Shown one piece after another: positions 32,896 to 63,500 of a stretch of DNA of 64,000 nt. How positions within the stretch are numbered: position 1 is the stretch's first letter; the number at the start of each line of letters is the position of its first letter. Origin of the DNA: Candidatus Bathyarchaeota archaeon (GTDB lineage Archaea; Thermoproteota; Bathyarchaeia; Bathyarchaeales; Bathycorpusculaceae); NCBI GenBank assembly GCA_963717465.1, contig OY970340.1, positions 1,184,001-1,248,000 on the forward strand, in the 5' to 3' direction. The notes beneath the pieces are model-generated. The model saw nothing but the letters and a program-made list of their open reading frames with translations. It did not search any database and had not been told where the DNA came from. A program made the translations under genes and the position numbers.

Positions 32896-33002
32896 TTGTG
32901 CTAAGAAAGACGTTTCTAGTGCAAAGATGTAAATCATTATAGAATCAATACTTCGTTTTGTTGCAAAAACTTGAGCAGACTCATAGTCTATGCTTAAATA
33001 TC
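32896..33002 (+). promoter_or_regulatory. Island regulon promoter, copy 5 (no convincing ORF downstream)
   Basis: Same boxes at +24/+32/+62/+98. Confidence 0.75.
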
Positions 33003-33096
33003 CACTAAAACGTGATAATTAAGAACAAAATAAATTCGATCAAAAAATTGAAATCATGACTTACCAGACATGAAGGTGCTCACGCTAGAAGTAACA

Positions 33097-33214
33097 TTTT
33101 CACCTTTAGATGGTGGCTATAGGGACGGACTCCCTCCTCCTATAGCCATCGGTAGTGGCTGTAAGGGAATCTCAAACCTCTGTTCCCTGCTCTCGTTCTC
33201 TTATAGCCACTACC
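33097..33214 (+). ncRNA. Putative structured sRNA with two conserved-stem hairpins
   Basis: GGTGGCTATAGG/CCTATAGCCATC (33112-33150) and GGTAGTGGCTGTAAGGGAA/TTCTCTTATAGCCACTACC (33151-33214). Confidence 0.55.
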
Positions 33215-33342
33215 AGCCGGGTTGTCTATTTTGTTTTATAAGAGAGTCTCTTTTTCTCAGAATTTGTAATTTAAAAACCTGTCACAGTTTATTTTTCTTT
33301 TGCTATTTAATTTTGAACGAAGCCTAAAAGTTGCTCTGTAAA

Positions 33343-33448
33343 TTGTGCCCAGAAGAGCATTTTTTTTGCAATAATGTCAATGATGATTAAATAAGTGCCT
33401 TGTTTTGTGTCGAAATACGAAAAGAGCTTGCAATTTACCTTAAATATC
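33343..33448 (+). promoter_or_regulatory. Island regulon promoter, copy 6 (no convincing ORF downstream)
   Basis: Same boxes at +24/+32/+62/+97. Confidence 0.78.
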
Positions 33449-33494
33449 AATCATGCAACTCCTTTAACGCGCTGTGATTCATCAAGTCTCGCGC

Positions 33495-33572
33495 AATTCA
33501 CCTCGGTGGTAGCTATAGGAAGCTTCGTAAAATCAATCTCCTATTATCTATCTCCTTCCTGTAGCTACTACC
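33495..33572 (+). ncRNA. Putative structured sRNA hairpin 3
   Basis: GGTGGTAGCTATAGGAAG/CTTCCTGTAGCTACTACC, 18-bp stem with a compensatory change. Confidence 0.55.
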
Positions 33573-33843
33573 CGCTTGATTGCTAATTCTTTTTAGAATG
33601 AACTTTAATTTAGAATTTGCGGTTTAAAGACTTCCAACATGGCTTTTCTTTTTGCTTTTACAGCACATTAAGGAAAGCCAAAAGTGGTTGAACACTTTTT
33701 AAGTGAATGCTCGTTTTACAGCTAGAACCAGACTAACTTGGTTTATCTAAATATCCAGTTAGGGAGAAGAAATATAGAACCTGAAAAATCAGCTTATGCT
33801 AACTTTATTACACTCTTGAACAAAGCCAAAAACCATTTTAATT

Positions 33844-33948
33844 TTGTGCTAAGAAAGATGTTTTATATGCAAAAACGTCAATCGTTACAAAATAAATACT
33901 TTGTTTTGTGGCTAATGTGAAAAGAACCTTGCAATTTAACTTAAATAT
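33844..33948 (+). promoter_or_regulatory. Island regulon promoter, copy 7
   Basis: Same boxes at +24/+32/+62/+97. Confidence 0.78.
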
Positions 33949-33980
33949 TGTAGCAAGACCCTCTAACGTGCGGCCGCTAT

Positions 33981-34035
33981 TAACCTTTAGGTGGTGGCTA
34001 TAGGATAGCCAAAGTCCCAACCTGTAGCCACCATC
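33981..34035 (+). ncRNA. Hairpin 4 (sRNA or 5' leader of the SDR gene)
   Basis: GGTGGTGGCTATAGG/CCTGTAGCCACCATC, 15-bp stem. Confidence 0.5.
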
Positions 34036-34066
34036 GCAAAAAGTGGAAAAAGAAGGCTTAAAAGTA

Positions 34067-34833
34067 ATGAAGAAATTAGAACAGAAAGTATCCATTATAA
34101 CAGGCGCTGGTTCCGGAATGGGGAAGGCAATCGCGTTATTGTTTGCTTTGGAAGGAAGTAGAATTGTAGCAACTGATATTGATCAGAATAGGCTAAATGA
34201 TCTTAAAGCTGAAATTAACCAGATAGGGGGAGAAGTAACCACTCTTCTTTCTAATATTGCGAAAAAAGAGGACGTGGAAAATATGATACAAGTGTCAACT
34301 GCGACTTACGGGACACTAGATATTTTGGTAAATAATGCTGGTGTTATGGATAGTTTTGGTGCTGTGCATGAAGTTGATGATGCTACATTGGAAAGGTTAA
34401 TGAAAATTAACTTTGAAGGTCCGTTTAGGGCGATGCGTGCAGCTATAAAAGATGTGTTTTTGCCAAAAAAATCTGGCGTTATTGTTAATATCTGCTCAAA
34501 AGCTGGTATTTGCGGGGGGCAGGCGGCGCGGCTTATACTGCAAGTAAATGGGCTCTAGTAGGATTAACGAAAAATACAGGTTTTCTATACTCTAATTCAG
34601 GTGTACGGTGTAATGGAATAGCTCCGGGCAGCGTTGTAACAAATATTCAACAATCAATAGATCCAGATAAAATGGGCATGTTTGCTGACGCGATGAACGC
34701 TGGATTAGTTATAAACCCAAGAGGAGGCGATCCTGAGGAAATAGCAAGAGTTGCCTTATTCTTAGCAAGTGATGATTCTTCATTTATAAATGGCGTAGTT
34801 ATTCCAGTTGACAGTGGCTGGAGCGCATACTAA
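34067..34833 (+). CDS. SDR oxidoreductase (HSDH-like), frameshift in G-run ~34514-34519
   Basis: TGAGSGMG and NNAG in the first ORF; YTASK and VDSGW in the second. Confidence 0.85.
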
Positions 34834-34919
34834 AATAATTCTTTATGCATGCGGAAGCTAACTCTTTTATTATTTTTAAATTGTGCTTCTTATTATCGGC
34901 TACGAAGTAACCAGAATGT

Positions 34920-35025
34920 ATGTGCTTATGAAGCTATTTTTCTTGCAAGACTGTGAATGAAAACTGCTGAGATACTTTAATTTGTGTCAGAAAACTAAGT
35001 GCGTTTTATAATTTAACATAAATAA
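34920..35025 (+). promoter_or_regulatory. Island regulon promoter, copy 8
   Basis: Same boxes at +24/+32/+62/+98. Confidence 0.75.
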
Positions 35026-35060
35026 TACTCTTCCTGAATAAAATTCGTCATTAAGATAAA

Positions 35061-35726
35061 TTGCATGATACTATGGGGAATTGGAAAACCTTGGAAATAG
35101 ATGATCTTAGAAAAGTAACAGCAGAAGTAAAAATGGAAGAAATGGAGAAATTAACCGACGAACTCATCAAGCAAGGCGTTGACCCCGTTAAAATACTGGA
35201 AGATGGCATAGTAAGAGGCCTCTACGATTTAGGAGAGAAATTTGAAAAACGAAAAGCATTCATCCCAGACTTAGTAAGAGGTGAAAAAGCAGCCAGAAAA
35301 TGCATTGAAAAACTCACAAAACTTCTTCCAACGGCGCAGTCTGGCAAAATTTCTAAAAAAATCGTTATTGGAACAATGCTTAGCCAACATAACATTGGCA
35401 AAAACCTTGTAAGCACCTTCCTATCAATCAACGGTTTTGATGTCATTGATATTGGCGAGAAGAAGGAGCCGTGGGATTTCTATGAAAAAGCCGAGCAAGT
35501 TCACGCAGACATGATTGCGGTCTCATGCATCTTTTTGCCATCCCTGACTAAGTTCCCAGAGTTGATCGACGTATTGAAGCAAATGAAAGTACGCGACAAA
35601 TACAAGGTCATTGTAGGCGGGACTTTAACCTCAAAGAAATGGGCTGAAGAAAACGGTGCCGACGGCTGGGGCTTTAACGCAAACGAAGGTGTACAAGTAG
35701 CAAAGAAACTTCTCGGCGTAGCCTAA
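35061..35726 (+). CDS. Methyltransferase corrinoid protein (variant B12 motif SQHNIG)
   Basis: Cap domain, HNIGKNLV, GFDVIDIG, VGG, GADGW. Confidence 0.88.
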   Translation: MHDTMGNWKTLEIDDLRKVTAEVKMEEMEKLTDELIKQGVDPVKILEDGIVRGLYDLGEKFEKRKAFIPDLVRGEKAARKCIEKLTKLLPTAQSGKISKKIVIGTMLSQHNIGKNLVSTFLSINGFDVIDIGEKKEPWDFYEKAEQVHADMIAVSCIFLPSLTKFPELIDVLKQMKVRDKYKVIVGGTLTSKKWAEENGADGWGFNANEGVQVAKKLLGVA

Positions 35727-36318
35727 TAAACCAATGAGTATCTGAATAAAGCTTGTGAAAAAAAAGGTTATTTGAATGTCATCAAACACAAAAGAAACAT
35801 CAACAAGTGAAATAAAAGAAAGCAAAGAAGCTGAAGAACTCAGGAAAAAATATTTAAAGAAAATTCGCAAAATGCCCGGAATTTGCTAATTCTCACTAAC
35901 AATCGAACAATTGCTTTTATTTGCTGCCTGTTTGCATTATCACGCGTGCAAACTGCTAGTCTGTATCGTAGCGTTGTCTAAACGCCGTTAGCCTAGTTGC
36001 CAAGAATAGAAACGTAAGTCCAAGCATACTTATTTCAACATGCAAATCTCAATAAAGCGATGGCTAATTAGGTCACATTTGTCTTAGGGGGAAGTGCTAA
36101 TTCTTTTTGCATAGCCACAACTGAGGACTTGCTTATTTACTCTTGAAACAAGAGATCTTTGATCCTGCCATTCAATTGAAAAGGGAATACTGAACTGCGT
36201 AACCTTTTGTAGCGGCTGTAAAGTCGGCTGATTCAGCAAAGCTGAACGAAACAGGATTATTCAGTTAAAAAGCATAAAGAATTTGCGGGTTCATTCTTGC
36301 TAAAAGTTCAAAATAAAA

Positions 36319-36424
36319 TTGTGTCTAAAAAATTGTGTTTCATGCAAATATGTGAATGACGATTGCCTAATTGCTTTATTTTGTGATGAAAGCCGAGAAT
36401 GGCTTATAATCTAACTTAATTATC
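36319..36424 (+). promoter_or_regulatory. Island regulon promoter, copy 9
   Basis: Same boxes at +24/+32/+62/+97. Confidence 0.8.
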
Positions 36425-38193: not shown

Positions 38194-39559
38194 ATGGGAT
38201 ATCTATTGTGGGAAGTCTTGGAAAGAACTAGAACTGGTCCAATCATGAAAGAAGACGAATTTGAGGTCACATATTTTCCGACGATACTAAAGAAGGTCAT
38301 CCAAGATTACAAGATCAAATGGGATGGCGAGCCAGTAATGGCAGATGCACAGATGGCTGATGCTATTTTTGAAGCTGGTATACAAGTGCTAGTTCAGTGC
38401 GGATTATACTGCAAAGATACTAAACACATAGTTAAATTCAATGAAAATGAACTGAGAGAAGTTGTCAAAACACGAAAGCATGAGGTTGAGTGGGGAACCG
38501 GCAGAGACGTGCTAAAGATGGGTATTAGAGGTCCTGAGGATAAGCAGCATCCATACTGCCTAAATGCGGGCGGAACAATGGGAAGCAACATACAAGAGTG
38601 GAGGGACGCTGTTTATCTCGCTGCTCGTGAACCGACGACAGATGGAATGATGACGGGAATACTTGAGGCGTCTTTTGGTCAGAAGTCAACGTATGCTACG
38701 CCTACTGAGTCGCTTGCTGTTCATGCTGAATGTGAGTTGATGACTGCTGGGGCGCGCGCTGCGGGAAGGCCTGGTATGTTGCTTGGTTTTCCTGAGACTG
38801 GTACGAGTATGGTTGCGTTGATGCAGGCTTTTGATCCTGGTTACTATACGCCTAAGGAACTGTATGATGCCAGTGCATATACTGCAGGACATGAGGGTAG
38901 TCGTTGATAGGCTTAATCTTGCTTACTTTGCTATGCAGCATGGGATTGTTCCGTGGCAGAGTTGTAGTCCTACGCTGTACGCTTATATCAGTAGTCCTGA
39001 GGAAGCGGCTGTTGAGGGAATGGCTCATTCGCTGGGTCAGATGGCTTATGCAGACGGGTCATTCACCCAGGCAATGAACAACACAATTGATAACCTATAT
39101 GTAGGTACAGATTGTTTTTGGACTAATTCAGCGATGGCTTTGGCTGCAGAAAGAAACATAAAGGTTCCTTGGATTTCCACCGGATTAGGATTAATGCAAC
39201 CTATGACTGACGCTGATTGGTATGCAACAGCATGTAGCTGCATTAATGCTTGTATATCTGGCATGGAAGGAATGTGGATGGTCGATGGTGGTTGCCCCGT
39301 TATCGGTGTAAGATTTGGAAGTGAATTCACACGAGCAGCTGCTGGAATAAAAGTAAGCGAAGGGACCAAGATAATAAAAGAGCTCACCAAGAAATTTGCA
39401 CCGGCTATAAAGGTATTTGACATTAGTCAAATAATGCGCAGTCTTTACTTGGACTATGACCCGGAAACTTTGAAACCTAGAAAGGAAACTGTGGATATGT
39501 ACAATAGGATGACGAAAGAGTTTAAAGACATGGGTTTTGACTACCCAACATGGGGTTAA
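38194..39559 (+). CDS. Pyrrolysine-free MtmB-family methyltransferase (EmtA-like), frameshift at ~38854
   Basis: R..TGPIMKEDEF, AD.IFEAG, AGRPGMLLGFPE (no TAG at the Pyl position), YLDYD.ETLKP. Confidence 0.8.
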
Positions 39560-40169: not shown

Positions 40170-40236
40170 CTTCTTGTCACCTCCTCATACTTTCCGTGTG
40201 CAGGTTTGTGAAGTTGAAAAACTATACTGTCTGATG

Positions 40237-40342
40237 AATATTTATGGTTGAATTATAGCAAGCTAATACTTCTAACACAAAATAAAGATATTTTGAGTTA
40301 CCTATTTACAAAATTGCATGAATAAAAGGTTTTTAAGCACAA
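40237..40342 (-). promoter_or_regulatory. Island regulon promoter, copy 10 (minus strand)
   Basis: Reverse complement has the same boxes at +24/+32/+62/+97, pointing to the SCP2 gene. Confidence 0.8.
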
Positions 40343-40774
40343 TTTGAATTGCACCTTTTTTTTGCTTTCAATCATAAAATTGTTAGCGAAAGGCGATGAC
40401 CGTGATAAAAATCACCAGTGTGCTCCAGAGCGTGTTCTGGGGTTAACTCAAAACCTCCATATCTTTTAAACTATTTTTTAATTTTTTACTTAACTAAAAA
40501 ATTGCCTTGCCATTATCCACAAAAAGAAACTTGGGCATTATCATCATTTTCTTTGCTGCTAATCGTTAATTTTTCTCACCTAGCATGAAATGGAAAGAAT
40601 TAAAATAAATTGGCAATCATCATACATAAAGACCGAAATTTGCATGCGCACTAACGCTTTTATTGCTTGGGTATTTTGAGCCAGCAAACTTGAGAATAAC
40701 GTTTCCAAGTATGGACGATGTGCAAAAATTGTTAAGAACACAAGGCTGGGCTAGATTTGCCGTGTCTTAATTAG

Positions 40775-40858
40775 CAAAAAGAGCTTAAAGGGTGACTATT
40801 CTGCGAAAGTTGGTGCTTCGGCCTAGTTCTATACTCGGGTTCTGACTCGGAAAACACG
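40775..40858 (-). repeat. Degenerate att-like copy of the tRNA-Glu 3' end with conserved flanks
   Basis: TGGTGCTTCGGCC (40811-40823); right flank near-identical to 44140-44177; left flank similar to 51890-51930. Confidence 0.7.
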
Positions 40859-40899
40859 CTTGATAGATTTTTGTTAATATCAATGAAATCGAATTCTGA

Positions 40900-40968
40900 T
40901 AGTGCGGAGGGTAAGGCTTTGAACCCTCATCACGGTGGGGATGTCACTCGCCCTTCACCATCTTTTTT
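40900..40968. repeat. tRNA-3'-like fragment plus hairpin/poly-T element, copy A
   Basis: AGTGCGGAGGGT..TTTGAACCC...GGGGATGTCACTCGC...TTTTTT. Confidence 0.5.
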
Positions 40969-41117
40969 GCAGTACTTTTAGTTTGTTTTCTACGCGTTAA
41001 AGTTGCTTGCTTTTGTGTTGCTCCATAGTTATAATCTTTAGAGTCTAACCTTTTTATTTGCAATGTGTAAAAAATTAGGGATTTATATTTTAAGAACTTT
41101 GTATCATTGGGTTAAAA

Positions 41118-41327
41118 GTGGTTGATATGTCTGCCAATCCATTAGCTTCTGACGAAGTACGAAGAAAAAAGAGAGTAGTTGGTGTAATTGCAATAGTTCT
41201 TTTGCTGTTTTTCACCGTTTTGGATATATTACGATTCATTTCGGTAATAGTGTGGATTATAGCAGATTTGGCTGTGGCGTTAATAGCGAATTTTCTGATT
41301 AGAAGAATTGGAAGAGTAAGCCTCTAA
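41118..41327 (+). CDS. Small 2-TM membrane protein
   Basis: Two hydrophobic helices flanked by basic residues. Confidence 0.55.
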   Translation: MVDMSANPLASDEVRRKKRVVGVIAIVLLLFFTVLDILRFISVIVWIIADLAVALIANFLIRRIGRVSL

Positions 41328-41544
41328 ATACTAATGTTTTGTCTGATGCCTTAAACGCTTGTTACCGCTGGCTAGACTTCATCTGGCTGTTGACGTTAGA
41401 AGTGATTTTGATAGCTGTTGAGGACGGTTTTGATCACGTCTGCGACTTCCAAGATGGTAACCTATTCAGAAAAAGAAAGTAACATGCTGGCGTATGGCAA
41501 CTGCGGGAAACAAGTTTTGCCACCCCTCGGCAATTTACTTATAA

Positions 41545-41609
41545 TGGTGCGCGGGGTGGGACTTGAACCCATGTCAGGGAGATGTCGCCCGCATCGTCTT
41601 CCCTTTTTT
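41545..41609. repeat. tRNA(Leu-like) 3' fragment plus hairpin/poly-T element, copy B
   Basis: Reverse complement of 41545-41571 is TGGGTTCAAGTCCCACCCCGCGCACCA (T-arm, acceptor, CCA); then GGGAGATGTCGCCCGCATC...CCCTTTTTT. Confidence 0.65.
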
Positions 41610-41678
41610 ATAGCGCATTTAAGGTGTCGGGCGATAAGAAATGATATTGGGCAGGGGGCGCATCTATACCTTTCGGCG

Positions 41679-43073
41679 TCAGGGATTGCCTATGTCTGAT
41701 GCTGTCGCGGCCGCCTTGATCAGCTCGCCGTCCTCGGCCAGCAAAAAGCCTGATTGTACAGCTGCATCAGTAGCCTTTCCTACAGCCTTTACATAAGTAT
41801 GGTGGTCGGGGTACAATTTTGAGAGTGTTACTTTATCAAACAGCTTAGTAGTTCCGTAAAGACCCAGGCCGGAAAGCCTGGCGACAGGTACATCGACAAA
41901 GGGGGTGCGGATGCCACCTTTCACATTGCCAAGCTCATCGAGCACAAGTTCTGGGGGATTACCAGCGATCTCGAGTCGGGCAGCGGCAGTCGGGGCAACA
42001 CCGGTGCACACCCATTTGTCGAGTTGGTGAATCGCCGCTCTTGTAATGAAATGCTGTGGTCCCGCATTTATCGGCAGATCGCAATCCGCAAAACCAGAAT
42101 TAGGTCTTGCTACCTCAACTACATTGGCAAACGATGGATCATTACCGGTGTCATCTTTACCTGTGAGCAGATAGAGATCAGCGTGTGCGGTACCCGCCAT
42201 TTCCCACAGCCGGATTTTATCCGTATCGTCCTGCCTTGCCTTATAATAACCAAGCAACATGAGATCCGTTTCCGACTCTAATATCAGAACGGGAACATTG
42301 ATGTCAGTGCGGATGAAAACCTGATCCATATCTGAAAAATCAATATTCTCTTTAGAATTGACCTCAGTTGAATTGTTTTCGAATAATGCGAAACCCGATC
42401 GGCCGTGTAAAAGAAATCCATCAAAGACTTGATCACGGAGCTGGATAGCATTGACATAGGAAGTGAGATGCATAGCGGATTGTGATTCGCCTACCGCCAA
42501 TATACGATCGGCATGGCATCCAGCGAGTAGATTGACGCTGCCCGGGCTACGAATGGCTCTGGCAGCTTGTGAATAAATATCATAGCAATATTCATCCCCG
42601 GGATGGGTTAGTGACCCATAACGTTGCGGATCAGCGGTTTTCAGATCCAATTTGACATTGCCTAATGAAATGGATGAGTGGCCTTCAACTCCTCCACATT
42701 GTGCCGACACGCCAATCCAGATATAACCCCGGCGGAGTAATTCGTTGTGCATAAATATCCAATCGGGTGCGTAATCGAGTCCGCCTGAAACGTTGAGCCA
42801 CTCCATTACAACGGTGCCGTTGAATTTGGCAACATCCAAGGGCTGGCAGACTATAATCCTGGTCTTATAGGCAGCAGATCCCATCGGTTCTACTTCCCAG
42901 ATGCCGTTCGCTGGTAATTCATTGACATTACGATATGATATAGCAGTTCCAGAGATGAAATATTCTTTTGTTTCGTATCCAGCGGCTGTTAGGACTTGAT
43001 TCGATGGTGTGCTCATCAAAAAAGGTACGCTGGGACCGGCGATGGGTCCCTCGATAATGGGAATACTGATCAC
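41679..43073 (-). CDS. Alpha/beta-hydrolase domain protein, GC-richer than its surroundings
   Basis: FNGTVVMEWLNV, GESQSA nucleophile elbow, EMAGTAH. Confidence 0.75.
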   Translation of the reverse strand: MISIPIIEGPIAGPSVPFLMSTPSNQVLTAAGYETKEYFISGTAISYRNVNELPANGIWEVEPMGSAAYKTRIIVCQPLDVAKFNGTVVMEWLNVSGGLDYAPDWIFMHNELLRRGYIWIGVSAQCGGVEGHSSISLGNVKLDLKTADPQRYGSLTHPGDEYCYDIYSQAARAIRSPGSVNLLAGCHADRILAVGESQSAMHLTSYVNAIQLRDQVFDGFLLHGRSGFALFENNSTEVNSKENIDFSDMDQVFIRTDINVPVLILESETDLMLLGYYKARQDDTDKIRLWEMAGTAHADLYLLTGKDDTGNDPSFANVVEVARPNSGFADCDLPINAGPQHFITRAAIHQLDKWVCTGVAPTAAARLEIAGNPPELVLDELGNVKGGIRTPFVDVPVARLSGLGLYGTTKLFDKVTLSKLYPDHHTYVKAVGKATDAAVQSGFLLAEDGELIKAAATASDIGNP

Positions 43074-43336
43074 GATGACACCCTCGCTCGTGCGGTTAAC
43101 TGCGGAATAATCTTGCTACCAATCAAATACAAACCCTCTTCAATTGGCATATTCATTTCTCCCCTTTCCTTCAAATTTGATAATAAAAGGTAAGCTCTAA
43201 GCGTATATTAGGTTAACTTTGGACGTAGTTCTTAACTTCAACTCAGTACTTTTGTGGCTAGTTGACTTTTGTTATTTAACAAGCAAATATACCTGCAGGT
43301 GCGTTGGATTCCACGCAACAGTAAATTGAACAGACA

Positions 43337-43388
43337 TGACTTAAACCCCCAGTTAAGTGGAGATTTCACCTGCAAAGCCCCCTTTTTT
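43337..43388. repeat. Hairpin/poly-T element, copy C
   Basis: ACTTAAACCC...GGAGATTTCACCTGCA...CCCTTTTTT. Confidence 0.45.
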
Positions 43389-43837
43389 CTTAAAAGCAAC
43401 CATTCTGACAGCTAGGACGAGCCCTTCGATACCAATTACTTCTACTTCTTTATCTTTTTCTATCCAGCTCTCCTTTGCCACGGCTTGCCAGAATTCACTC
43501 TTGACACGAATTTCCCCCTTCTGTTTTAAATCAGTAATAGCAATTCCTATTGCGCCAACTAGTATTCTGGACCTGCCTTGACATTGGCAAGCATATCCAT
43601 CCTAACTCCTCTGTAAAGACGAAACGCTCGGAAAGTTAATATCACAATACCGAATATGACAACCAAAACCTGAATTAGTAAACTAACCCTGAAAAAACTA
43701 AGACCTAAAACAATGAAAAACAAAATTAAACCCGGAATCAACGTCCAAAGAATAATCAGAAAAACCCACTCCAAAGGCTTGCTTAGATTCCTCCTTTCTT
43801 CGCATGCTAAAACAAAACCGCCATTCTTAAACCTCAT
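43353..43837 (-). CDS. NfeD-like protein (TM helices plus C-terminal OB fold), frameshift at ~43562
   Basis: After GPE the other frame reads VGAIGIAITDLKQKGEIRVKSEFWQA...VEVIGIEGLVLAV. Confidence 0.7.
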
Positions 43838-44110
43838 TTTTCACGCTACCCGTGTAAACTTGATTTTGATCCACATTGTCCAAAAGATAATCTAGATGAA
43901 GAGTTACTTAAATAGAAAGAAGGTGTAGTTGGAATCAAGTATTACGTGCGCTTTTAATCCCAAACATATAAACCGTCTTTTGCTTATTTTTTGGGGGAGT
44001 TTTATGCTTGCGAAGTAATAAACGAATTTTCAGGGAAAACAAGCGGCAAATACGCTTAAACTAAGCTCGATTTGCAACGCCTTAATTACCAAAAAAAGCC
44101 TAAAAACTGA

Positions 44111-44177
44111 CTATTTCGGGAAAGTTAATTAGTGCTCCGGCCTAGGTCTATACTCGGGTTTTAACTCGGAAAACACG
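44111..44177 (-). repeat. att-like direct repeat of the tRNA-Glu 3' end
   Basis: 32 bp at 44111-44142 identical to 51912-51943. Confidence 0.85.
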
Positions 44178-44337
44178 ATTTACATCTTTTTGTTAATTTG
44201 AATACTTTAAAGAAGAGGTTATCTCAAAAGAAGTGTTTAACATAATTTTACGTTTCATAAATCCAGTTTGATTAATTATCGCAACTTAAGCGGTTCCAAT
44301 CCCTAAAATATTTAAATCCAAGAGAATAATTGTATTC

Positions 44338-44799
44338 ATGGCTCAAGGCAGGAAAGAAGAACTAAAAAGCGCCGTTTTAGGAAAGAACGTCACAAAATTT
44401 GTTTTTAATCGTCCCAGCGCCAAAATTCTTGAGATATTTCAAAACAGGTACTCAAAACGTGATTATTTCATTAATATTGATATACCCGAGTTTACCAACA
44501 TTTGTCCGTTAACTGGACAACCAGACTTTGCGGTAATTCGCATACGCTACGTTCCCGACGAAAAATGCTTAGAGTCAAAATCGCTGAAAATCTACATTTT
44601 CTCTTATCGCAATTTTCCTGAATTTCATGAAGATTGCATTAACAGAATTTTAGATGATTGTGTAAAGGTATGTGCGCCTAGATGGATGCAAGTATCGGGC
44701 AAGTTTAATGCCAGAGGAGGCATTTCATTCACGCCTGTGGCTGAGTTCACTAAAAAGGGTTTCAAATTGGCTCAGCAGAGCGCAAAATTAGATTTATGA
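44338..44799 (+). CDS. queF: PreQ0 (7-cyano-7-deazaguanine) reductase, unimodular type
   Basis: PEFTNICPLTGQPDFA, ESKSLKIY, FHE, FNARGGI. Confidence 0.88.
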   Translation: MAQGRKEELKSAVLGKNVTKFVFNRPSAKILEIFQNRYSKRDYFINIDIPEFTNICPLTGQPDFAVIRIRYVPDEKCLESKSLKIYIFSYRNFPEFHEDCINRILDDCVKVCAPRWMQVSGKFNARGGISFTPVAEFTKKGFKLAQQSAKLDL

Positions 44800-45254
44800 T
44801 GCTCGCAAGAGTTGAGGATGCAAAGATGAAAAAATCTGAATTCGACAAATATCTCCAAGAAAGGTACAATGACCAAGTAAAATGGTATGACACCAAAGCA
44901 ATCCTTTACAAAAGATTGAATTACATATTCCAAATCCCAACAATCTTTGTTGCAGCAATTATTCCAATATTCGCTTTGCTTGAACAAAAATGGGTAACAG
45001 TAATCCTTTCAGCTACAATGGCTATATTTATCGGAATCCTGAACTATTCCAAATTCGAGGAAAAATGGCATAATTATAGGTTTACATGTGAAAGACTAAA
45101 GAAAGAACTCTTCTTTTACACAGGTAAAATTGACGACTATAAAAATGCAGAAGAACCAGAGAGCTTGTTTGTTCAGCGAGTTGAATCAATTACTTCCGAC
45201 GAACATTCACAGTGGGTCACAATTGAAAAAACCAAGAAGAAACAAAATCAATAA
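44796..45254 (+). CDS. SLATT / DUF4231 2-TM effector
   Basis: YL.ERY.DQ..WYD.KA, 2 TM, W.NYR.TCE.LK.E, FV.RVE.I. Confidence 0.82.
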   Translation: MMLARVEDAKMKKSEFDKYLQERYNDQVKWYDTKAILYKRLNYIFQIPTIFVAAIIPIFALLEQKWVTVILSATMAIFIGILNYSKFEEKWHNYRFTCERLKKELFFYTGKIDDYKNAEEPESLFVQRVESITSDEHSQWVTIEKTKKKQNQ

Positions 45255-45264
45255 GGCGATTTAA

Positions 45265-46254
45265 TTGCTTGTTGAAAAAAAATCACTTAGATCTTTTAAA
45301 ATTGAAGATTCTGGAAAATCATTTGAAACCCCTTTGTTTGTCCCTGCGACATCTAGTACAAAAGCAAATTGGACAGTTTTGCAATATATTGACTTAATAG
45401 AAAACGTCGGGTATCCGTCGTTTCTTGTCTCAGCTTATGATTATTGCAAGCTTGAAAAAAAGCAAAAAGAGGATTTTGAGAAGCTTTTGGGAAAATACAG
45501 AAAGAAAGGCACTTTTTTCTTTTTAGATAATGGTAACTATGAAGCTTATTGGTACAAAGACAAAAAATGGAATCTGGACGGATTAAGAGATGCTTTGGAG
45601 ACTGTTTGCCCAGACTTTTGCTTTTCCTTTGATGTTTTCTGGGAAAAAGACACAAAAACAGAATCATACATCAAAGATACTGTATCGGCTATTGCAAAAA
45701 CAGCAGGTTCGCAAAAAACAGGGTCAACTATTGCATTGTTTCATTCCAGGCCTGATTTATTTCCGAAAGTAGTTAGAAAAGTCGTTGATAGCATTAATCC
45801 CGAAATAATTGCTGTCCCTGAAAGGGAATTAGGATGTAGCGTTTTTGAACGTGCCCTATCAATTAAAAACATTCGAAGTGAACTTGATAAAGACGGAAAG
45901 TTGATACCAATGCATATTCTCGGCACAGGTAACCCACTTTCAATTCTTATTTACACATTGTGTGGAGCTGATACCTTCGATGCCCTTGATTGGTCAAGTG
46001 TATTTATGGACCCAAAAACTTGTCAGCAGGGTCATTTTTCACAGAAGGATTTGTCAACCTGTAGTTGCGAGGCATGTCAATTGAAACAGGTTCCATACGA
46101 TTACCAGGTCATGGCCCACAATCTAATCTTCTATCAAAGATTCTTGGAAAAAATCAAAAAATCTCTTGAATCATGTAAAGTTGATACGCTGCTCAAAGAG
46201 TATCTATCTGACAAAAACGTATTGGAAGTAAAGAAAATAGCGGTATTGAAATGA
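45265..46254 (+). CDS. TGT-like (tRNA-guanine transglycosylase fold) protein, Cap10-like
   Basis: ETPLFVP, LDNGNYE, HILGTG, GADTFD, CSCEAC...HNL zinc site. Confidence 0.8.
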   Translation: MLVEKKSLRSFKIEDSGKSFETPLFVPATSSTKANWTVLQYIDLIENVGYPSFLVSAYDYCKLEKKQKEDFEKLLGKYRKKGTFFFLDNGNYEAYWYKDKKWNLDGLRDALETVCPDFCFSFDVFWEKDTKTESYIKDTVSAIAKTAGSQKTGSTIALFHSRPDLFPKVVRKVVDSINPEIIAVPERELGCSVFERALSIKNIRSELDKDGKLIPMHILGTGNPLSILIYTLCGADTFDALDWSSVFMDPKTCQQGHFSQKDLSTCSCEACQLKQVPYDYQVMAHNLIFYQRFLEKIKKSLESCKVDTLLKEYLSDKNVLEVKKIAVLK

Positions 46255-46991
46255 CTGAACTTTGCTTGATTACTGAAAGAATTGAGAATACTATTATGAA
46301 GGTGTGCGACTTCGTCGATTCACAACAAACAACTGGCTCTTGTTGGAAAAACCTCTGCGAGGAAGAGCTTTGGCCAGAATTGGTGTCCTGTATATTGGGC
46401 AGTAGAGTTAGATATGAGACTGCGAAAGCATGTTCTATCCAGTTATTAAAAACTGGTTTGCTTGATATTTCTACTATTTTGAAAAATCCTAAGCGTGTTG
46501 AAAAAGCAATAACCAAGGAATTAGGCAGACCCATGTATCCGCCAATGAAAGGCCGCCTAGGTTCAAGATAGCGTTACCCGAAATCCAAGTCTAAATTTAT
46601 CGTAGACACCGCGGTTAAAATATACTATGAAGACAAAACTACGATAAAGGATATTCTAAATAGCTCTCATGATGGGATTGAAGCAAGAGCGACGCTGATT
46701 GAAAAATGCAAAGGTATAGGACCAAAACAAGCAAGTCTTTTTCTTAGAAACATAAGTTTTAGCAATGATTTGGCTATTCTTGATTGTCATGTTGACCGAT
46801 ACATGAGATTGCTTCGATTGAGCGATAGTTTGGACTTGATAGACAAGCAGAAAATGCATCCCTATTTTAAGATGGAAAATAAGTTGAGAATATACGCGAT
46901 ATCTAAAAAGAGATCGCTTGCAACTTTGGATATAGGCATTTGGACTGTTATGCGCCTAGTAAAAAAGGAGGATATAGTATGGCAGTTGTAA
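46251..46991 (+). CDS. OGG-like HhH N-glycosylase/lyase (Cap11-like) with in-frame TAG at 46569
   Basis: ELVSCILGS, R*RYPKSKS, KGIGPKQASLFLRN, AILDCHV, LDIGIW all in one frame. Confidence 0.75.
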
Positions 46992-47608
46992 GTTTAGTTT
47001 CTGGTGGAATTGATTCTCTAACTATGTCAAAAATTATTGTTGAACAAGGAGAAGAAATATTACCGATTTTTATTGACTATGGTCAATTAGCTAAAGACAA
47101 GGAATGGGCTGCCTGTCAACTGGTTTTCAAGGAATCTGGCTTGTCTGCCCCAATCAGAATCGACTTAAGCGGTTATGGCAAATTAATGCCGACAGGAATT
47201 ACTGACCCAAAAAAGGAAATACGTGATCAAGCTTTTCTTCCCGGAAGAAATCTCTTATTTCTTGTTGTCGGAAGTTCTTATGCTCATTTCAAAGGAGCTA
47301 GGGGAGTAGCAATCGGTTTGCTTACAGAAAAGTCACATATATTTCCTGATCAGACTGGCAGATTTGTTGTCAATACAAATATAGCTGTAAACGAAGCTCT
47401 GGACGATGATATTACTATATTGACGCCGCTGATTAATTTCTCCAAAAGCCAAGTAATCGAACTTGCTAAACACTACAAACTTCCAATAGAAAAAACATAT
47501 TCTTGTCACTCGGGTAACGACACTTATTGTGGGAAGTGTATTTCTTGCCTGGAGCTTCTCGGTTCAATTGGAAAAGACTTGCCACAATTTAAAGCTAAAG
47601 GTGTTTAA
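46979..47608 (+). CDS. queC: QueC-family PP-loop ATPase, Cap9-like
   Basis: SGGIDS, IDYGQ, PGRNLLFL, FPD, TYSC...CGKCISC. Confidence 0.88.
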   Translation: MAVVSLVSGGIDSLTMSKIIVEQGEEILPIFIDYGQLAKDKEWAACQLVFKESGLSAPIRIDLSGYGKLMPTGITDPKKEIRDQAFLPGRNLLFLVVGSSYAHFKGARGVAIGLLTEKSHIFPDQTGRFVVNTNIAVNEALDDDITILTPLINFSKSQVIELAKHYKLPIEKTYSCHSGNDTYCGKCISCLELLGSIGKDLPQFKAKGV

Positions 47609-47609
47609 T

Positions 47610-48131
47610 GTGGGTGGTTCACCGGTATACAGCGATACGGGTCATGGTGGAGCAACTGATACTGACAAGTTGCAGGATATCGCTCGAAAAGAGCTTGAAA
47701 AACCAGCTCCAGAATCTAGAAAGAAAGTTTTCCTCAGCTTCAAAGGAGAAGATAAGACCTATGTTGACTTATTCCGTGGTCAGGCAAAAAATGAAAATTC
47801 AGACCTTGATTTCATTGACTTTTCGCTCAGAGCACCTTTTAACAGCGAAAACGCCGAGTATATCAAAAGTGGGATCAGACAAAGAATTGAGCAATCTTCT
47901 GTTACAATTGTGTGCTTAACTGAAGACACTCACAAGAGCGAATGGGTGGATTGGGAAATCAAAGAAAGCATAAGGCTTGGTAATGGTGTAATAGGTGTAA
48001 AAATGAAAGATGATTCCTCAATAAAGACACCAAAAGCAATGGAAGAAAATGGTTGCAAGGTGGTCAACTGGAATCACGAAGAGATTAATCAAGCGATGAG
48101 TGAGGCGGATAAAAAGCGCAAAGAACAATAA
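47610..48131 (+). CDS. TIR domain protein (ThsB/DUF1863-like) with N-terminal MGGS extension
   Basis: GTG start 2 nt after the queC stop with an AGGTG SD; VFLSF, SSVTIVCL, SEWVDWEI with catalytic Glu. Confidence 0.85.
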   Translation: MGGSPVYSDTGHGGATDTDKLQDIARKELEKPAPESRKKVFLSFKGEDKTYVDLFRGQAKNENSDLDFIDFSLRAPFNSENAEYIKSGIRQRIEQSSVTIVCLTEDTHKSEWVDWEIKESIRLGNGVIGVKMKDDSSIKTPKAMEENGCKVVNWNHEEINQAMSEADKKRKEQ

Positions 48132-48272
48132 TCTTTGGCAACTAAACATCTAAGGGCTATGTATCTTCTTCTTTGCCCTCGTTTTCTATTCTCTTGTGCT
48201 TCTAAGCCTGGAAACTAAACTGTGCAGACATTGACTATGTGAACTCAACCATCAGCATTACACCAGAAAAAC

Positions 48273-48387
48273 TGGGAATTACACCCCAAGCAAATGGAGA
48301 CGTCTCCCGCAAAACTCCCTTTTTTTGGATCGGTGGGGAATTTGAACGTAGCCGATAGTGGAGATATCACCCGCATATCTCCTTTTT
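48273..48387. repeat. Hairpin/poly-T element, tandem copies D and E
   Basis: GGAGACGTCTCCCGCA..CCCTTTTTTT and perfect GGAGATAT-CACCCGC-ATATCTCC-TTTTT, each preceded by a GGGAATT..-like T-arm remnant. Confidence 0.55.
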
Positions 48388-48491
48388 ATTTCGGCCTTAA
48401 TTCGAGCTATTCTATTTTGCTTTTTAGATTAAAAAGGTTCAAAAATTTTTAACTACTGTTATAGAGATCAACGGGTCGTTTTGGCTTTCCC

Positions 48492-49622
48492 TCATAAAGT
48501 CCTTTTTTTGATTTCAAGCCAGACGAGTGGAATTCCTGATAAAAATGAGCCAACAATAAGAAAAACAAAAGTCAAAATAGTGACGTAGTTATTGCTGAGT
48601 TTGAAATATGTCACAATGTCATTGGGGAAGGTGGCTGCTATTCCTATGAGAAGGATTCCAGCGATCATAGATACTATAAGGGAGTAAACTTCAAGTCTCT
48701 TTGACATTAATTTATATGGAAGCTTGATCGAAGGCGTCTCAAAATTCTCATCGGATTCTGTAACAACTATTTCTGAGCTTTCGCTTGTAAGAGTTTCTTT
48801 GGTTTGAAAATCAAAATACTTGGTATATTTGTCCTGAGCCATTGGCAAATCAATCTCTGATGAGCCTACATGGGATATTAATTTATCATCAACGCTAATG
48901 GTAATTTTTTTGTTTGGCTTGTTGTTATGCTTCTGATGATCTGGATTAAAAGCACTCAAAGATACAGCATACGGTCTTCCTTGACTGATTTTAAAAGAAT
49001 GTTCTTCAATGGATAATTGGGACTTGAGCTCCGTTCTGAGAAGAATGTTGGTTCTGAAAAATATCGAATTACTAAATTGTTCTTGCCCTTTCAATCGGGC
49101 AATAGGGTCAGCTCTTGCCAACATTTTGGCTGTCTCTTCCCAAATCTCTTGTTGAGAGTTTGTGCTGTTTTGATTTCCAACTAAAGGGTCGGCGCCTTTT
49201 AACACAAGTTTTTGAAGATATTCATCACTATTTGGAGTGGCTTTTGATAACATTTTTTTTTGACTCAAAATAGTTCGGATATCATCGTTGAATTTCTTAG
49301 TGTCAACCGGATTTACGAAATCTTCCATGCTTAGAATAATCTGATAAGTTACCCCTATCGTAGGTGGTATGATTTCTGAAACTTTGCAACGTCTGATTGG
49401 ATAAAATTCTGCGTTCTGTTTTGAATAATCAAGGAAGATTACGAGACCAGATATATTTTTAGCTTTGTTCAAATTCAATTTAATGTCATCGGATAGCCAT
49501 TTTTCGTCATACTCGACAAATTGAATCAGGCCGTTTGGTAAACTGAGAATCGAAAGAATCTTCTGCCTGAAGTCGGGATAATAGGTTGATTTAAAGAAGA
49601 AAATGATTTCAGGTGTGCTCAT
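48492..49622 (-). CDS. Hypothetical protein with 2 C-terminal TM helices
   Basis: 376-aa ORF, probably co-transcribed with the radical SAM gene. Confidence 0.7.
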   Translation of the reverse strand: MSTPEIIFFFKSTYYPDFRQKILSILSLPNGLIQFVEYDEKWLSDDIKLNLNKAKNISGLVIFLDYSKQNAEFYPIRRCKVSEIIPPTIGVTYQIILSMEDFVNPVDTKKFNDDIRTILSQKKMLSKATPNSDEYLQKLVLKGADPLVGNQNSTNSQQEIWEETAKMLARADPIARLKGQEQFSNSIFFRTNILLRTELKSQLSIEEHSFKISQGRPYAVSLSAFNPDHQKHNNKPNKKITISVDDKLISHVGSSEIDLPMAQDKYTKYFDFQTKETLTSESSEIVVTESDENFETPSIKLPYKLMSKRLEVYSLIVSMIAGILLIGIAATFPNDIVTYFKLSNNYVTILTFVFLIVGSFLSGIPLVWLEIKKRTL

Positions 49623-49641
49623 TTATCCATTCATCTCTCTT

Positions 49642-50793
49642 TCAGAGCGGAACCTCACATCTGTATCTTCTTATCTCTGGCTCGCTATAAAAGCTTGGAA
49701 GAACACTTTCATACCACAATTGCGTAACAGTTTTCTGAAATCGCACAAATTTCGGAAACCACTCATCTGGACTTTCGTTATCGTGCCAAGGCAGTTTTCT
49801 TCCTTCTTTAAGGGCAGCGACCATATTTGGCTTCACAGCGGAATACGATTTAATTTGCAGCATGTTTGCCCTCAACGGAAGATTTGTATGAATTTGTTTG
49901 AGCCTACAACAACAAATATTCAATCTTCTTTTTAACTCGTCATTTTCAGCAAAAACCATCGGTATTAAATAGACATATGTGTCTGCCTTAAGTTCATTGA
50001 CCAAGAAATTCAAAACCTCAAATTGTTTTGCGAAGAATTCAGGCTGTGAATTAGTAATCTGAGAAAAATCTTCCGATCCTACTTGTCCGTCTCCAATGCC
50101 TTTCAAGCACCCGACTATCCCAAAATTGTGGTTGCCTATAGTTTCCTTTAGTTCATCCAACACTCTTTCCAAGTAATTGGTTGTTGACAAATTACAATCT
50201 GCCCAAACGTAGACACTGTTTGAAATGTTTCGTTTGTCAAGTTCCCTGTAAACGTCGATTATTAGTTCGGGAACTATAGTTGTTGCTTCTCCCCCACTAA
50301 TCCTAATAACATTCAGTTCCTCAGTGGTTGCCCTAAGTTTTTCGTACTCATCAATAATATCGCTTACTTTGAAGTATCGTCCTCTGCCAGCTTCAGGATT
50401 ATTCAAATCCCTGTCCACATAGCAATAGCTGCAATCATAATCGCAACCGTTGAGTTGGATCGTAAACGTATTGTTGTATTTTCGAGGATCACCACCCATT
50501 TTCTTCGCTGCGCTGTAAGGTGGATTCTGAAACTCTAGTTTTTGAAAACCGCCTTCAAGTCCTAGAAATTTCGGTGACCAGATTTCTGAGGTTGGAACAC
50601 TTGTCCACCATTGTGCATATAAATCTGACGGATCTCTGGGATCTATGTACGTTCTAGTCCGAAAATTTTTTTTAATGTCTTTACTATCCTTTATCTGGAC
50701 TCCTTGAGTAAAATCCGGAACAAAATAGCTGTTCGTAGCTGGGTCTCTCATTTGTTTTCTGCGTTTTGCTGCTATTTCTTCTGGATTTAGCAT
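49642..50793 (-). CDS. Radical SAM protein
   Basis: GCDYDCSYC and IRISGGE. Confidence 0.85.
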   Translation of the reverse strand: MLNPEEIAAKRRKQMRDPATNSYFVPDFTQGVQIKDSKDIKKNFRTRTYIDPRDPSDLYAQWWTSVPTSEIWSPKFLGLEGGFQKLEFQNPPYSAAKKMGGDPRKYNNTFTIQLNGCDYDCSYCYVDRDLNNPEAGRGRYFKVSDIIDEYEKLRATTEELNVIRISGGEATTIVPELIIDVYRELDKRNISNSVYVWADCNLSTTNYLERVLDELKETIGNHNFGIVGCLKGIGDGQVGSEDFSQITNSQPEFFAKQFEVLNFLVNELKADTYVYLIPMVFAENDELKRRLNICCCRLKQIHTNLPLRANMLQIKSYSAVKPNMVAALKEGRKLPWHDNESPDEWFPKFVRFQKTVTQLWYESVLPSFYSEPEIRRYRCEVPL

Positions 50794-51129
50794 ATTTCTT
50801 GATTGCGCCTTTGGTAGTATTTTAATTCTTCCTATTTAGGTCACATAGATCCTAATCAAGAAGTCAAAAACCATTGGAATTCAATTCAGCCCATTTCACC
50901 AAGTGGATTTGATTCTGGAACAAACGTCTTATTGTTAAATCAATACACTGCTGCCAGTGCCGGAGCTGATTTACTGATGGGTACTGGTGTGTTTGCCCTC
51001 ATCTGTATTGGTTGGTATGTACACAAGCAGTAGAGATATTACTTTCATCTATGTTCCCAAAGTCAACTGGTTTTTGAAGTTTTGAAATTTTACTAATGAG
51101 GCGTAAGCTTCCTGTTTGCTTACGCTTTA

Positions 51130-51753
51130 AAGGTTATGTATACACTCAACACAAAATTATCAACCCTAAAGAGTGTTCTGGCATTCTGATAAGGATAAAA
51201 AATGTGGCAATGGGGGAATGACAATTTCTCGAATATCCTTCAAACACTTATCAACTTTTCAGAAACTGGCTATCCGGTGAAATCTATATCGACCAAGGCC
51301 TTGAATCTGCGATGAGCATCAATCGAAGCGATTTTAAAATAACAAATCCGGATTACATCGCGCTCAAGAATTGGATTCATAATTTTTTGGATGACATCGT
51401 TTTCAAATATACTAACAAGCAATATTATCAAAAAGGACGGGAAAACAGAAAGAAAGAAGAAGAAACCGACAAATTTTCAACTCTGAACAGAATTGTAACC
51501 AATGAAATCGGAAACAATTATCGATTATGTTACCAAGAATTGCCTGAAAAAAACAATAGCGATAGACCAAAAACAAGAATAGGTAATAATAAACAATAGG
51601 CATCCGTTGTTTAGAAAGGTACCCAAACAATTTGAGAGTATTATTCAACAGATGTTTCTTTTGTTTAAGATAGCACAAGAGAAGAGTGGCGATGACGTAA
51701 AGAAATTAGAACTTCTGTTTGAAGAAGAGCTTGAGAAATGGATCACTGAGTAA
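51130..51753 (+). pseudogene. Fragmented C-terminal part of a GHKL/MORC-type ATPase
   Basis: Pieces KGYVYTQ..GILIRIKNVA and WLSGEIYIDQGLESAMSINRSDF..NPDY, interrupted by stops and shifts; no N-terminus. Confidence 0.5.
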
Positions 51754-51933
51754 TCAGACTGCATTTAAAGCCATCCTTTCTTTATAATATAAAACGCTTT
51801 TTCAGCGAATAATGGAGTAAGTAACTAACTACAAAATTGAAATGTCCACAGTGAATCAATTATTAGAATTGACCAAGTGATAATGCATACCAAAAAGAGC
51901 TTAAAAAATGGCTATTTCGGGAAAGTTAATTAG

Positions 51934-52008
51934 TGCTCCGGCCGGGATTTGGACCCGGGTCCGCGACTCGAGAGGCCGCTATACTTGACCGGACTATACT
52001 ACCGGAGC
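51934..52008 (-). tRNA. tRNA-Glu (anticodon CTC)
   Basis: GCTCCGG/CCGGAGC acceptor stem; anticodon arm GCGGC-CTCTCGA-GTCGC. Confidence 0.92.
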
Positions 52009-52268
52009 AGTTTTAGGCTTTAGCGTAAATACTGATTTAGCTTGTATTAATTTACTTTCCTCTTAAGGAATAAATCTGAAGCGTTCAAGTGTAAGTTCGA
52101 TTCTTTAAATTCTTTCTATGGAATTATTTAGTAAGCTTTTGCTAGCTACCCTTCTTGAAAGTTAGCCCTTGTTGCGATTAAGAATAATGCTTTAAGAAAA
52201 TTTAGGAAATGTTTAGTTTTTTGGTTACGGCTATTTAGGAAGTTTTAAAGAAAAATTAAGGGAGAATT

Positions 52269-63497: not shown

Positions 63498-63500
63498 AAA

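Follow-up and report, generated by a model that had tools for sequence, protein, structure and literature searches.

A six-gene operon in an archaeal genome

The window analysed here, a stretch of 64,000 nucleotides from Candidatus Bathyarchaeota archaeon (contig OY970340.1, positions 1,184,001 to 1,248,000 of the forward strand), contains an operon of six genes that encode, in this order, a QueF, a SLATT protein, homologues of Cap10 (TGT-like), Cap11 (OGG-like) and Cap9 (QueC-like), and a TIR protein of the ThsB type (Table 1). A preliminary description of this DNA had read them as abutting or overlapping genes on one strand; all the frames were found where it had placed them on the + strand, and the families that it had named are matched in Pfam and PADLOC far beyond chance. 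It overlooked an in-frame TAG in the OGG-like gene, which is not intact. The host genome consists of one contig of 3,053,889 bases (3.05 Mb), with a completeness estimate of 88%. The window is archaeal DNA; among its products are thermosome, a proteasome subunit, FttA, Fae-Hps and an Fpo-like complex.

Cap9, Cap10 and Cap11 are accessory proteins of type IV CBASS (cyclic oligonucleotide-based antiphage signalling system). According to Wassarman et al. (10.1101/2025.04.06.647259), the QueC homologue Cap9 ligates 7-carboxy-7-deazaguanine onto Gly2 of the signalling enzyme, a CD-NTase (nucleotidyltransferase of the cGAS/DncV type) that starts M(G/S)G(G/S)GG, and the N-terminus so tagged is bound by the TGT homologue Cap10, defence depending on its residues D73 and D248. 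No CD-NTase had been recognised in the window, and the searches agree: SMODS (PF18144) has zero matches across the whole 3.05-Mb genome, and none of the ten local proteins is matched by the cyclase models of PADLOC. With Rfam at gathering thresholds only tRNA was found in the window, and no preQ1 (7-aminomethyl-7-deazaguanine) or other riboswitch upstream of QueF.

Accessory proteins and predicted effector

The QueC-like protein matches QueC in Pfam (6.6e-38) and PADLOC (7.1e-31), and scores 124.6 bits on the NCBIfam QueC equivalog, under its cut-off of 150.3. Read against the Cap9 and QueC motifs as listed in 10.1101/2025.04.06.647259 and PMC13329287, it carries all those of Cap9, namely the SxGxDS loop (S8-G-G-x-D12-S13), the RN pair (R90-N91), the aromatic-x-D substrate motif (F122-x-D124) and the Zn site (C176, C184, C187 and C190), and these residues are invariant in 35 of 35 sequences; FPDQ stands in place of the canonical YPDC in 34 of them. 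A further motif, YxQxHxxE, was tried as a mark of canonical QueC and dropped, because a congener's own canonical QueC is without it.

The TGT-like protein is matched by the TGT model of PADLOC (3.9e-27). Its best solved relative is Cap10 (9ntn_A; 1.8e-8 with the single sequence, 1.1e-13 with the profile), and it reaches only 19-21 bits on the models of tRNA TGT and ArcS. D73, H226 and D248 of Cap10 correspond to D88, H217 and D239 of the window protein, invariant in 30 of 30 sequences; that is, the base-reading positions D73/S74 and the catalytic pair H226/D248 are represented, with S74 replaced by Asn. The SLATT protein matches DUF4231 (2.5e-18) and SLATT_1 (1.6e-12) of Pfam, scores 107 bits on the NCBIfam model SLATT_1 (cut-off 41), and shows two hydrophobic stretches in its translation.

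Of the searches that the preliminary description had proposed, PADLOC and the hidden Markov models recover TGT, QueC and ThsB; no PADLOC model matches the Cap11-like gene, whether that of the window (read with X at the stop), the intact gene of a close relative (L091; related loci are given L numbers) or that of a further locus (L085).

The position equivalent to Cap10 S74 (45529-45531 in the window, residue 89) varies among the related loci. Asn occurs only in the window's clade (L091-L094, L097 and L155), these six including all four loci with QueF upstream, while 105 other loci have Ser and a single one Cys. The change from Ser to Asn was considered as pointing to a different base; it co-occurs with QueF but was not used as evidence, because it marks one clade only and the residue is described as reading the Watson-Crick edge (10.1101/2025.04.06.647259).

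The TIR and its glycine-rich N-terminus

The TIR protein matches ThsB_TIR of Pfam (6.4e-23, over residues 41-135) and ThsB of PADLOC (4e-18). All 45 sequences compared (45/45) share its W112, E116 and E119, and we take the catalytic Glu of TIR enzymes to be among them. Before the TIR domain lies an extension of 37 residues that starts M(GTG)-G-G-S-P, a motif shorter than the consensus MGGGGG. At E<=1e-5 the protein has 377 homologues; most of the 120 listed start MGGGGG or MGGSGG, judged by eye, and where the called N-terminus is longer, V/L-GGGG comes a few residues later. Relatives of the TIR were matched in 182 species-level genomes. Gly2 of the window protein is Gly in 44 of 45 aligned relatives and lies in a Gly/Ser-rich start of the kind suited to deazaguanylation. 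With its damaged Cap11, the window locus adds one more member to this large family.

The predicted complex of a Cap10 dimer with the TIR gave a median ipSAE (an interface confidence score) of 0.54 (runs 0.62, 0.54 and 0.47), the best of three controls reaching 0.00; the tool rates this as 'weak support'. The ipSAE mark is reached by 116 of 157 solved complexes and by 2 of 215 mismatches, values <=0.60 occurring in only 18 of the 157 solved complexes and in both passing mismatches. The pLDDT (predicted local distance difference test) of the partner did not fall below 72, nor contact agreement below 43%.

Related loci

To place the operon among its relatives, 160 related loci were fetched, 80 of 182 from species-representative genomes and 80 of 93 from metagenomes, and scored by phmmer with the window proteins; 153 of them had enough upstream DNA to assess the order of Cap9 and TIR. 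In 148 of these 153, across many phyla, the gene immediately upstream of the TIR is the Cap9-like one. In 141 of the 148 the TIR matches a pattern of start codon plus Gly, and the other seven show M/V/L-G-G/V on inspection. The five loci without Cap9 (L067, L068, L086, L088 and L166) encode a TIR that never carries the N-terminal extension (0/5) and that stands beside a SLATT gene only, so that the Gly-rich N-terminus is limited to loci with Cap9. Since the Cap9-less loci pair an extension-free TIR with SLATT, TIR and SLATT appear to be the core pair, and the Gly-rich N-terminus to travel with the tagging enzymes.

Cap10 is present in 68 of 80 genome loci and 49 of 80 metagenome loci, Cap11 in 66 and 64, and SLATT in 46 and 25, respectively. 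The order of the Cap genes and the TIR in the window was found again in most related loci, which answers the question of recurrence that the preliminary description had raised; one locus (L085) has the order Cap10-Cap11-Cap9-TIR-SLATT. Many bacterial relatives (L028, L063, L071, L103, L104, L106, L108, L117, L140 and others) carry a second, divergent TIR (E ~1e-11 to 1e-26 to the window TIR) that adjoins the effector, upstream of Cap10-Cap11-Cap9-TIR.

A probable Thoeris-type system with a tagged TIR

We consider it very probable, on homology, that the operon encodes a Thoeris-type abortive-infection system, in which a ThsB-like TIR is paired with a SLATT effector and is checked and primed by the deazaguanylation machinery of type IV CBASS. 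The steps would be as follows: (i) the initiator Met would be removed, exposing Gly2 of the TIR; (ii) the QueC-like ligase (Cap9) would activate 7-carboxy-7-deazaguanine with ATP and join it to the Gly2 amine; (iii) the tagged N-terminus would dock in the base pocket of the TGT-like (Cap10) dimer; (iv) on infection Cap10, whose catalytic Asp/His pair is kept, may pass the TIR-linked base to some target; (v) the TIR, freed or clustered, would make an NAD-derived signal of the cyclic ADP-ribose type; (vi) SLATT would oligomerise in the membrane and stop the cell; and (vii) Cap11 (OGG-like) would reverse the transfer, although in the window a nonsense codon truncates it. The preliminary description had likewise supposed that 7-deazaguanine chemistry controls a TIR that fires a SLATT effector, and this idea is supported by the M-G-G motif, by an N-terminal extension found only with Cap9, by the conservation of the mapped catalytic residues and by the plain TIR and SLATT pairs.

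Several points weigh against this interpretation: (i) Asn takes the place of Cap10 S74 in the window protein and in the two sequences closest to it, Ser being found in 26 of 30 sequences, and Cap10 D122 and K154 fall outside the aligned stretches and are hence unmapped; (ii) the profile of the QueC-like family does better on structures of canonical QueC (95.6 and 87.9 bits; 3.1e-26 and 7.1e-24) than on Cap9 (9nto_B; 80.5 bits; 1.3e-21), and because of this slight preference the label Cap9 rests on context and motif changes and not on the closest sequence; (iii) the signal molecule is presumed by analogy with type VII Thoeris; (iv) Cap11 is cut off by the TAG ahead of its catalytic part; (v) the QueF-bearing loci are essentially one clade plus one other case; and (vi) no source of 7-carboxy-7-deazaguanine was found in the host, with no PTPS/QueD match, no canonical QueC and no QueT (by tblastn), QueE having not been searched as a family.

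The same proteins could in principle act on nucleic acid, in a Dpd-like DNA or tRNA pathway of 7-deazaguanine modification in which DNA or RNA is the substrate of QueF, QueC, TGT and OGG, the TIR and SLATT being unrelated neighbours. Such a system would be consistent with a QueF that passes the NCBIfam preQ1 synthase equivalog, with a QueC-like family about as near to canonical QueC as to Cap9, and with a TGT-like protein that keeps the transglycosylase nucleophile. We regard it as extremely improbable, however, given that the TIR is fixed just downstream of the QueC-like gene in the 148 loci described above and has its Gly-rich N-terminus only there; that the QueC-like protein falls under the QueC equivalog cut-off and has FPDQ, not YPDC; that the TGT-like protein finds its best solved match in Cap10 and barely scores on tRNA TGT and ArcS; and that no FolE, QueD, QueE or DpdB/C-like genes occur in the cassette or in the flanks of its relatives.

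QueF as a gene of the cassette

QueF, the first gene of the operon, matches its Pfam family at 1.3e-32 and scores 160 bits on NCBIfam TIGR03139 (QueF-II; cut-off 86.9), thereby passing the preQ1-synthase equivalog; it is the sole QueF match in the host genome. Its translation reads C56, D63, E79-S-K-S-L-K-I-Y and H97-E98, and we assume for the Cys, the Asp, the His-Glu pair and the NADPH 'QueF motif' the roles that they have in the QueF of B. subtilis. The same six genes in the same order are found in L091, L093, L094 and L097, that is, in all of the closest loci with enough upstream sequence (4/4); their TIRs are 83-84% identical to that of the window and their flanks differ. A different QueF occurs in a Methanoregula locus (L012), just after the TIR and overlapping the end of the TIR gene. 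It appears to be a separate recruitment, because it is only 38% identical to the window QueF, and 45% to the QueF of Priestia against 48% for that of the window. Among databank sequences the window QueF belongs to a clade of 37 cluster representatives at 61-85% identity, after which identity drops to bacterial QueF at <=58%; seven of the 37 could be tied, indirectly, to genomes with TIR homologues.

It could be argued that QueF is an unrelated housekeeping or passenger gene beside a five-gene defence cassette, as only 5 of the 160 related loci have it and its sequence is that of an ordinary QueF. This seems to us quite improbable. The stop of QueF overlaps the start of SLATT; QueF keeps its position in all four closest full-length loci despite their differing flanks; a second, non-orthologous QueF overlaps the TIR end in L012; none of the 30 congeners searched has any QueF; and no QueA was found in the host genome, so that preQ1 has no visible use there in queuosine synthesis. 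As far as sequence can tell, QueF is part of the cassette in the window's clade. It looks unreported in this role: QueF is absent from the main text of 10.64898/2025.12.03.692087, a preprint whose supplementary tables may list such loci, and from the text of 10.1101/2025.04.06.647259, and a literature search found no paper combining QueF with Cap9 or a TIR.

Two functions may be proposed for a QueF that belongs to the cassette. Tentatively, it might tune the free 7-deazaguanine pool of an archaeal host, in which preQ0 (7-cyano-7-deazaguanine) and not preQ1 is the end product, so that the free base would spare the Cap10 pocket for the tagged TIR. An unlikelier proposal makes QueF a working part of the immune chemistry itself, either by interconverting bases in salvage-only hosts, with preQ0 or preQ1 gating the system as competitor or co-substrate in the Cap10 pocket, or by supplying a Cys-preQ0 intermediate that feeds TIR tagging. 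If true, genetics would gain its first access to the free base by which deazaguanylation-dependent immunity is controlled.

In the Methanoregula locus the TIR and QueF are followed on the opposite strand (1810-2945 of L012) by genes for a nucleoside 2-deoxyribosyltransferase-like protein and a protein of 211 residues, and then by a Bpu10I-like restriction-modification pair. The opposite-strand genes could be the effector of that locus.

An interrupted Cap11-like gene and the supply of substrate

The C-terminal part of the OGG-like gene matches Ogg-HhH of Pfam (1.5e-19), and with an X in place of the stop the whole gene gives a single Ogg-HhH domain over residues 31-216 (8.1e-23). Because this one domain spans the TAG, we read one interrupted gene and not two; an intact HhH-GPD glycosylase domain is lacking, the stop lying inside it. 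Both parts align one to one with the intact proteins of 245 residues encoded in L091-L095 and L097, and the codon at the position of the TAG is TAT (Tyr) in these six closest relatives (6/6), within G-S-R-Y-R-Y-P. Since they agree on TAT, the window gene would seem to carry a one-base nonsense change, or else a base-call error. The frame past the TAG is open for 139 codons and well conserved, which points to a recent change or possibly a base-call error. A single read run was found, with 0.07 of the sampled words; the contigs made from it extend over no more than 45960-46270, short of the TAG site. Judged by the Ogg2 family, the HhH-GPD motif has its catalytic Lys and Asp downstream of the point where the window gene is interrupted.

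The presence of MtmB- and MttB-like genes in the window prompted a reading of the TAG as pyrrolysine. PylS_Cterm reaches at best 31 bits in the genome (cut-off 178), no PylS thus passing the cut-off, ARAGORN finds no tRNA-Pyl in the genome, and TAG terminates 178 of its 1032 long open frames. The reading was rejected because PylS and tRNA-Pyl are missing, TAG is an ordinary stop, and the MtmB-like pieces lie in different frames.

Congeners differ from the host in the genes that could supply the substrate. QueC was matched in 9 of 12 congeners searched, eight of the matches being full length at about 210 bits and one partial, and in one congener (G001) QueC stands beside QueT, adjoining the proteasome and FttA genes. 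At the syntenic spot the host has, beside its own proteasome and FttA genes, a restriction-modification pair made up of a BsaWI-like enzyme and an N6/N4 DNA methylase (62721-63953, - strand). The congener stretch that was compared (L175, 8345-9541) holds a canonical QueC and a QueT transporter, neither found elsewhere in the host genome. Congener matches to PTPS were not taken as QueD, and so not as evidence of queuosine precursors, because they lie beside FolE2 in both regions examined, with FolB, HPPK and a GHMP-kinase following in G001 (a pterin cluster).

The Cap11 stop and the substrate genes not found lend support to another explanation, namely that in this particular genome the cassette is decaying and non-functional, its TIR untagged and the system inert or mis-regulated. 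Its case rests on the presence, at codon 107, of TAG, which this genome uses as an ordinary stop, in place of the Tyr of the six closest relatives; on the PTPS/QueD, canonical QueC and QueT genes missing from a single-contig genome; on the QueC of 9 of 12 congeners, with its QueT neighbour in G001; and on the restriction-modification pair at that spot in the host. Against it, the other five genes are intact with all their mapped catalytic residues, the frame beyond the TAG has stayed open and conserved, other routes of 7-deazaguanine uptake are conceivable, the completeness estimate leaves room for missing genes, and Cap11 is reported to be dispensable for defence in type IV CBASS and to occur in only about a third of these systems (10.1101/2025.04.06.647259). 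We regard decay as possible though doubtful; it concerns present activity only and is compatible with a tagged, Thoeris-type TIR as the explanation for the family.

Genomic setting and neighbouring genes

Three direct repeats near the operon are copies of the 3' end of a tRNA-Glu(CTC) gene plus its downstream flank. The operon lies in a segment of 7.7 kb, which we delimit by these attachment-site-like (att-like) repeats because copies at 44087-44203 and 51888-51960 flank it; the second segment, of 3.2 kb, includes an alpha/beta-hydrolase gene (Abhydrolase_10 match, 41679-43073). The island integrated at a tRNA gene that had been described is thus found again in its borders, the tRNA-Glu-derived repeats bounding the operon segment, but not in its machinery, no integrase being seen among the open reading frames scanned in that segment. 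In a sample of 101 genomes of the host's family the TIR has 2 matches, one of them the host itself and the other 40% identical, and among the matches listed for the 30 congeners only two short ones (~41074-41327 and ~43398-43803) fall within 40170-52246.

Table 1. Genes of the operon and repeats around it, in window coordinates
Feature	Position	Strand	Remarks
QueF	44338-44799	+	First operon gene; single-domain NADPH-dependent 7-cyano-7-deazaguanine (preQ0) reductase type
SLATT/DUF4231 protein, two transmembrane segments	44796-45254	+	Predicted effector; ATG overlaps QueF stop (ATGA)
TGT-like (Cap10 homologue)	45265-46254	+	TTG start
OGG-like glycosylase gene (Cap11 homologue)	46251-46991	+	ATG overlaps TGT-like stop (ATGA)
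In-frame TAG	46569-46571	+	Codon 107 of the Cap11-like gene; read in the sequence
QueC-like PP-loop ligase (Cap9 homologue)	46979-47608	+	13-nt overlap with OGG-like gene
ThsB-type TIR	47610-48131	+	GTG start 1 nt past QueC stop
tRNA-Glu(CTC)	51933-52008	-	ARAGORN; Rfam tRNA 54.7 bits
Right-hand att-like repeat copy	51888-51960	-	tRNA-Glu 3' end and the 45-nt downstream flank (51888-52008 = tRNA and flank)
Att-like direct repeat, left border of operon segment	44087-44203		Against 51888-51960: 73 nt, 85%; against 40810-40884: 75 nt, 84%
Third att-like repeat copy	40772-40884		Bounds second segment of 3.2 kb, 40885-44086

Inside the 7.7-kb segment of the operon, on the opposite strand, lie two further genes: one for a radical SAM protein of 383 residues (48492-49622; CxxxCxxC, Pfam 5.6e-9) with weak matches to viperin, NrdG and PflA-activase-like proteins, followed by one for a protein of 376 residues (49642-50793) with C-terminal membrane helices and no family match. 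Look-alike clusters for both proteins are present in bacteria and archaea, and neither protein occurs in any of the 160 related loci (phmmer, for the radical SAM protein). The pair may be a separate two-gene accessory or defence module. The radical SAM protein was also considered as a QueE and rejected as a part of the system, with 19.9 bits on the B. subtilis-type QueE model and no counterpart in the related loci.

Elsewhere in the window, an MtmB-like gene (monomethylamine methyltransferase family) extends across two overlapping frames (38194-38907 and 38831-39559, + strand), from which we deduce a frameshift; several copies of the stretch, 74-80% identical, are found elsewhere in the genome. 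A molybdopterin oxidoreductase gene (27175-29490, + strand) is split by an in-frame TGA at 27628-27630 (...VEH*DGP...), which may be a selenocysteine codon, since ARAGORN calls two tRNA-SeC genes in the genome. An intergenic repeat of 90-105 nt is present in three to four copies, 60-74% identical, between corrinoid-protein and dehydrogenase genes (32878-36423).

Discussion

Protein deazaguanylation has been described only in 2025, and in the system proposed here the same tagging machinery would serve a second, unrelated signal generator, a TIR instead of a CD-NTase. That the same N-terminal glycine motif recurs in many phyla of bacteria and archaea speaks for a tag that affects the control of the signalling enzyme and not its chemistry. 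The recruitment of a preQ0 reductase on two occasions, in hosts without a QueF of their own, suggests a part for free 7-deazaguanine bases in the switch.

The locus shares features with four known kinds of system and departs from each of them: (i) Type IV CBASS (CD-NTase, effector, Cap9 and Cap10, with or without Cap11) has in common with it the accessory trio, a signalling enzyme that starts M-G-G, the PP-loop of Cap9, the Asp/His pair of Cap10 and an effector with two transmembrane segments. In contrast, the signal generator here is a TIR, the residue equivalent to Cap10 S74 is Asn, and the Cap9-like protein has 209 residues with FPDQ whereas CBASS Cap9 has about 185 with YxDC. With no PF18144 match in the genome and no local cyclase match, the locus is not a type IV CBASS, because the CD-NTase that defines this type is absent. 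(ii) Type VII Thoeris is described as ThsB with a SLATT effector, ThsH, the signal being canonical cyclic ADP-ribose (10.64898/2025.12.03.692087). The pairing of TIR and SLATT is the same as in the window, and plain pairs homologous to it are found in L067, L068, L088 and L166; unlike the window locus, these pairs have neither the N-terminal extension nor any Cap genes. (iii) In QatABCD, as reported in PMC13279940 and PMC13329287, QatC deazaguanylates QatB, so that there, as is predicted for the window, a ligase of the QueC family tags the N-terminal glycine of a partner protein. However, the window locus has no homologues of QatA, QatB or QatD, and QatC is a protein of about 400 residues with a remodelled active site, whereas the window protein has a QueC-like core.

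(iv) The closest likeness is to the Thoeris operons with cap9, cap10 and cap11 presented, with an AlphaFold 3 model, in a preprint of December 2025 (10.64898/2025.12.03.692087, Fig. 6G and S10B). The preliminary description had held out the prospect of an uncatalogued architecture; this no longer applies to the core, which is already known from that preprint, a fact that lowers the novelty of the locus but not its interpretation. Here too a ThsB-type TIR stands in one operon with an effector and with QueC-, TGT- and OGG-like genes, and L085 bears the organism name of the preprint's AlphaFold 3 example, Pseudomonadales bacterium isolate SP163. The window locus differs from the operons of the preprint in having QueF as the first gene of the cassette, in its archaeal host and in its interrupted Cap11. 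Taken as a whole, these comparisons identify it as a Thoeris-type system with CBASS-type accessories, of which the QueF-bearing archaeal form is a variant, and one that adds a testable clue on the switch.

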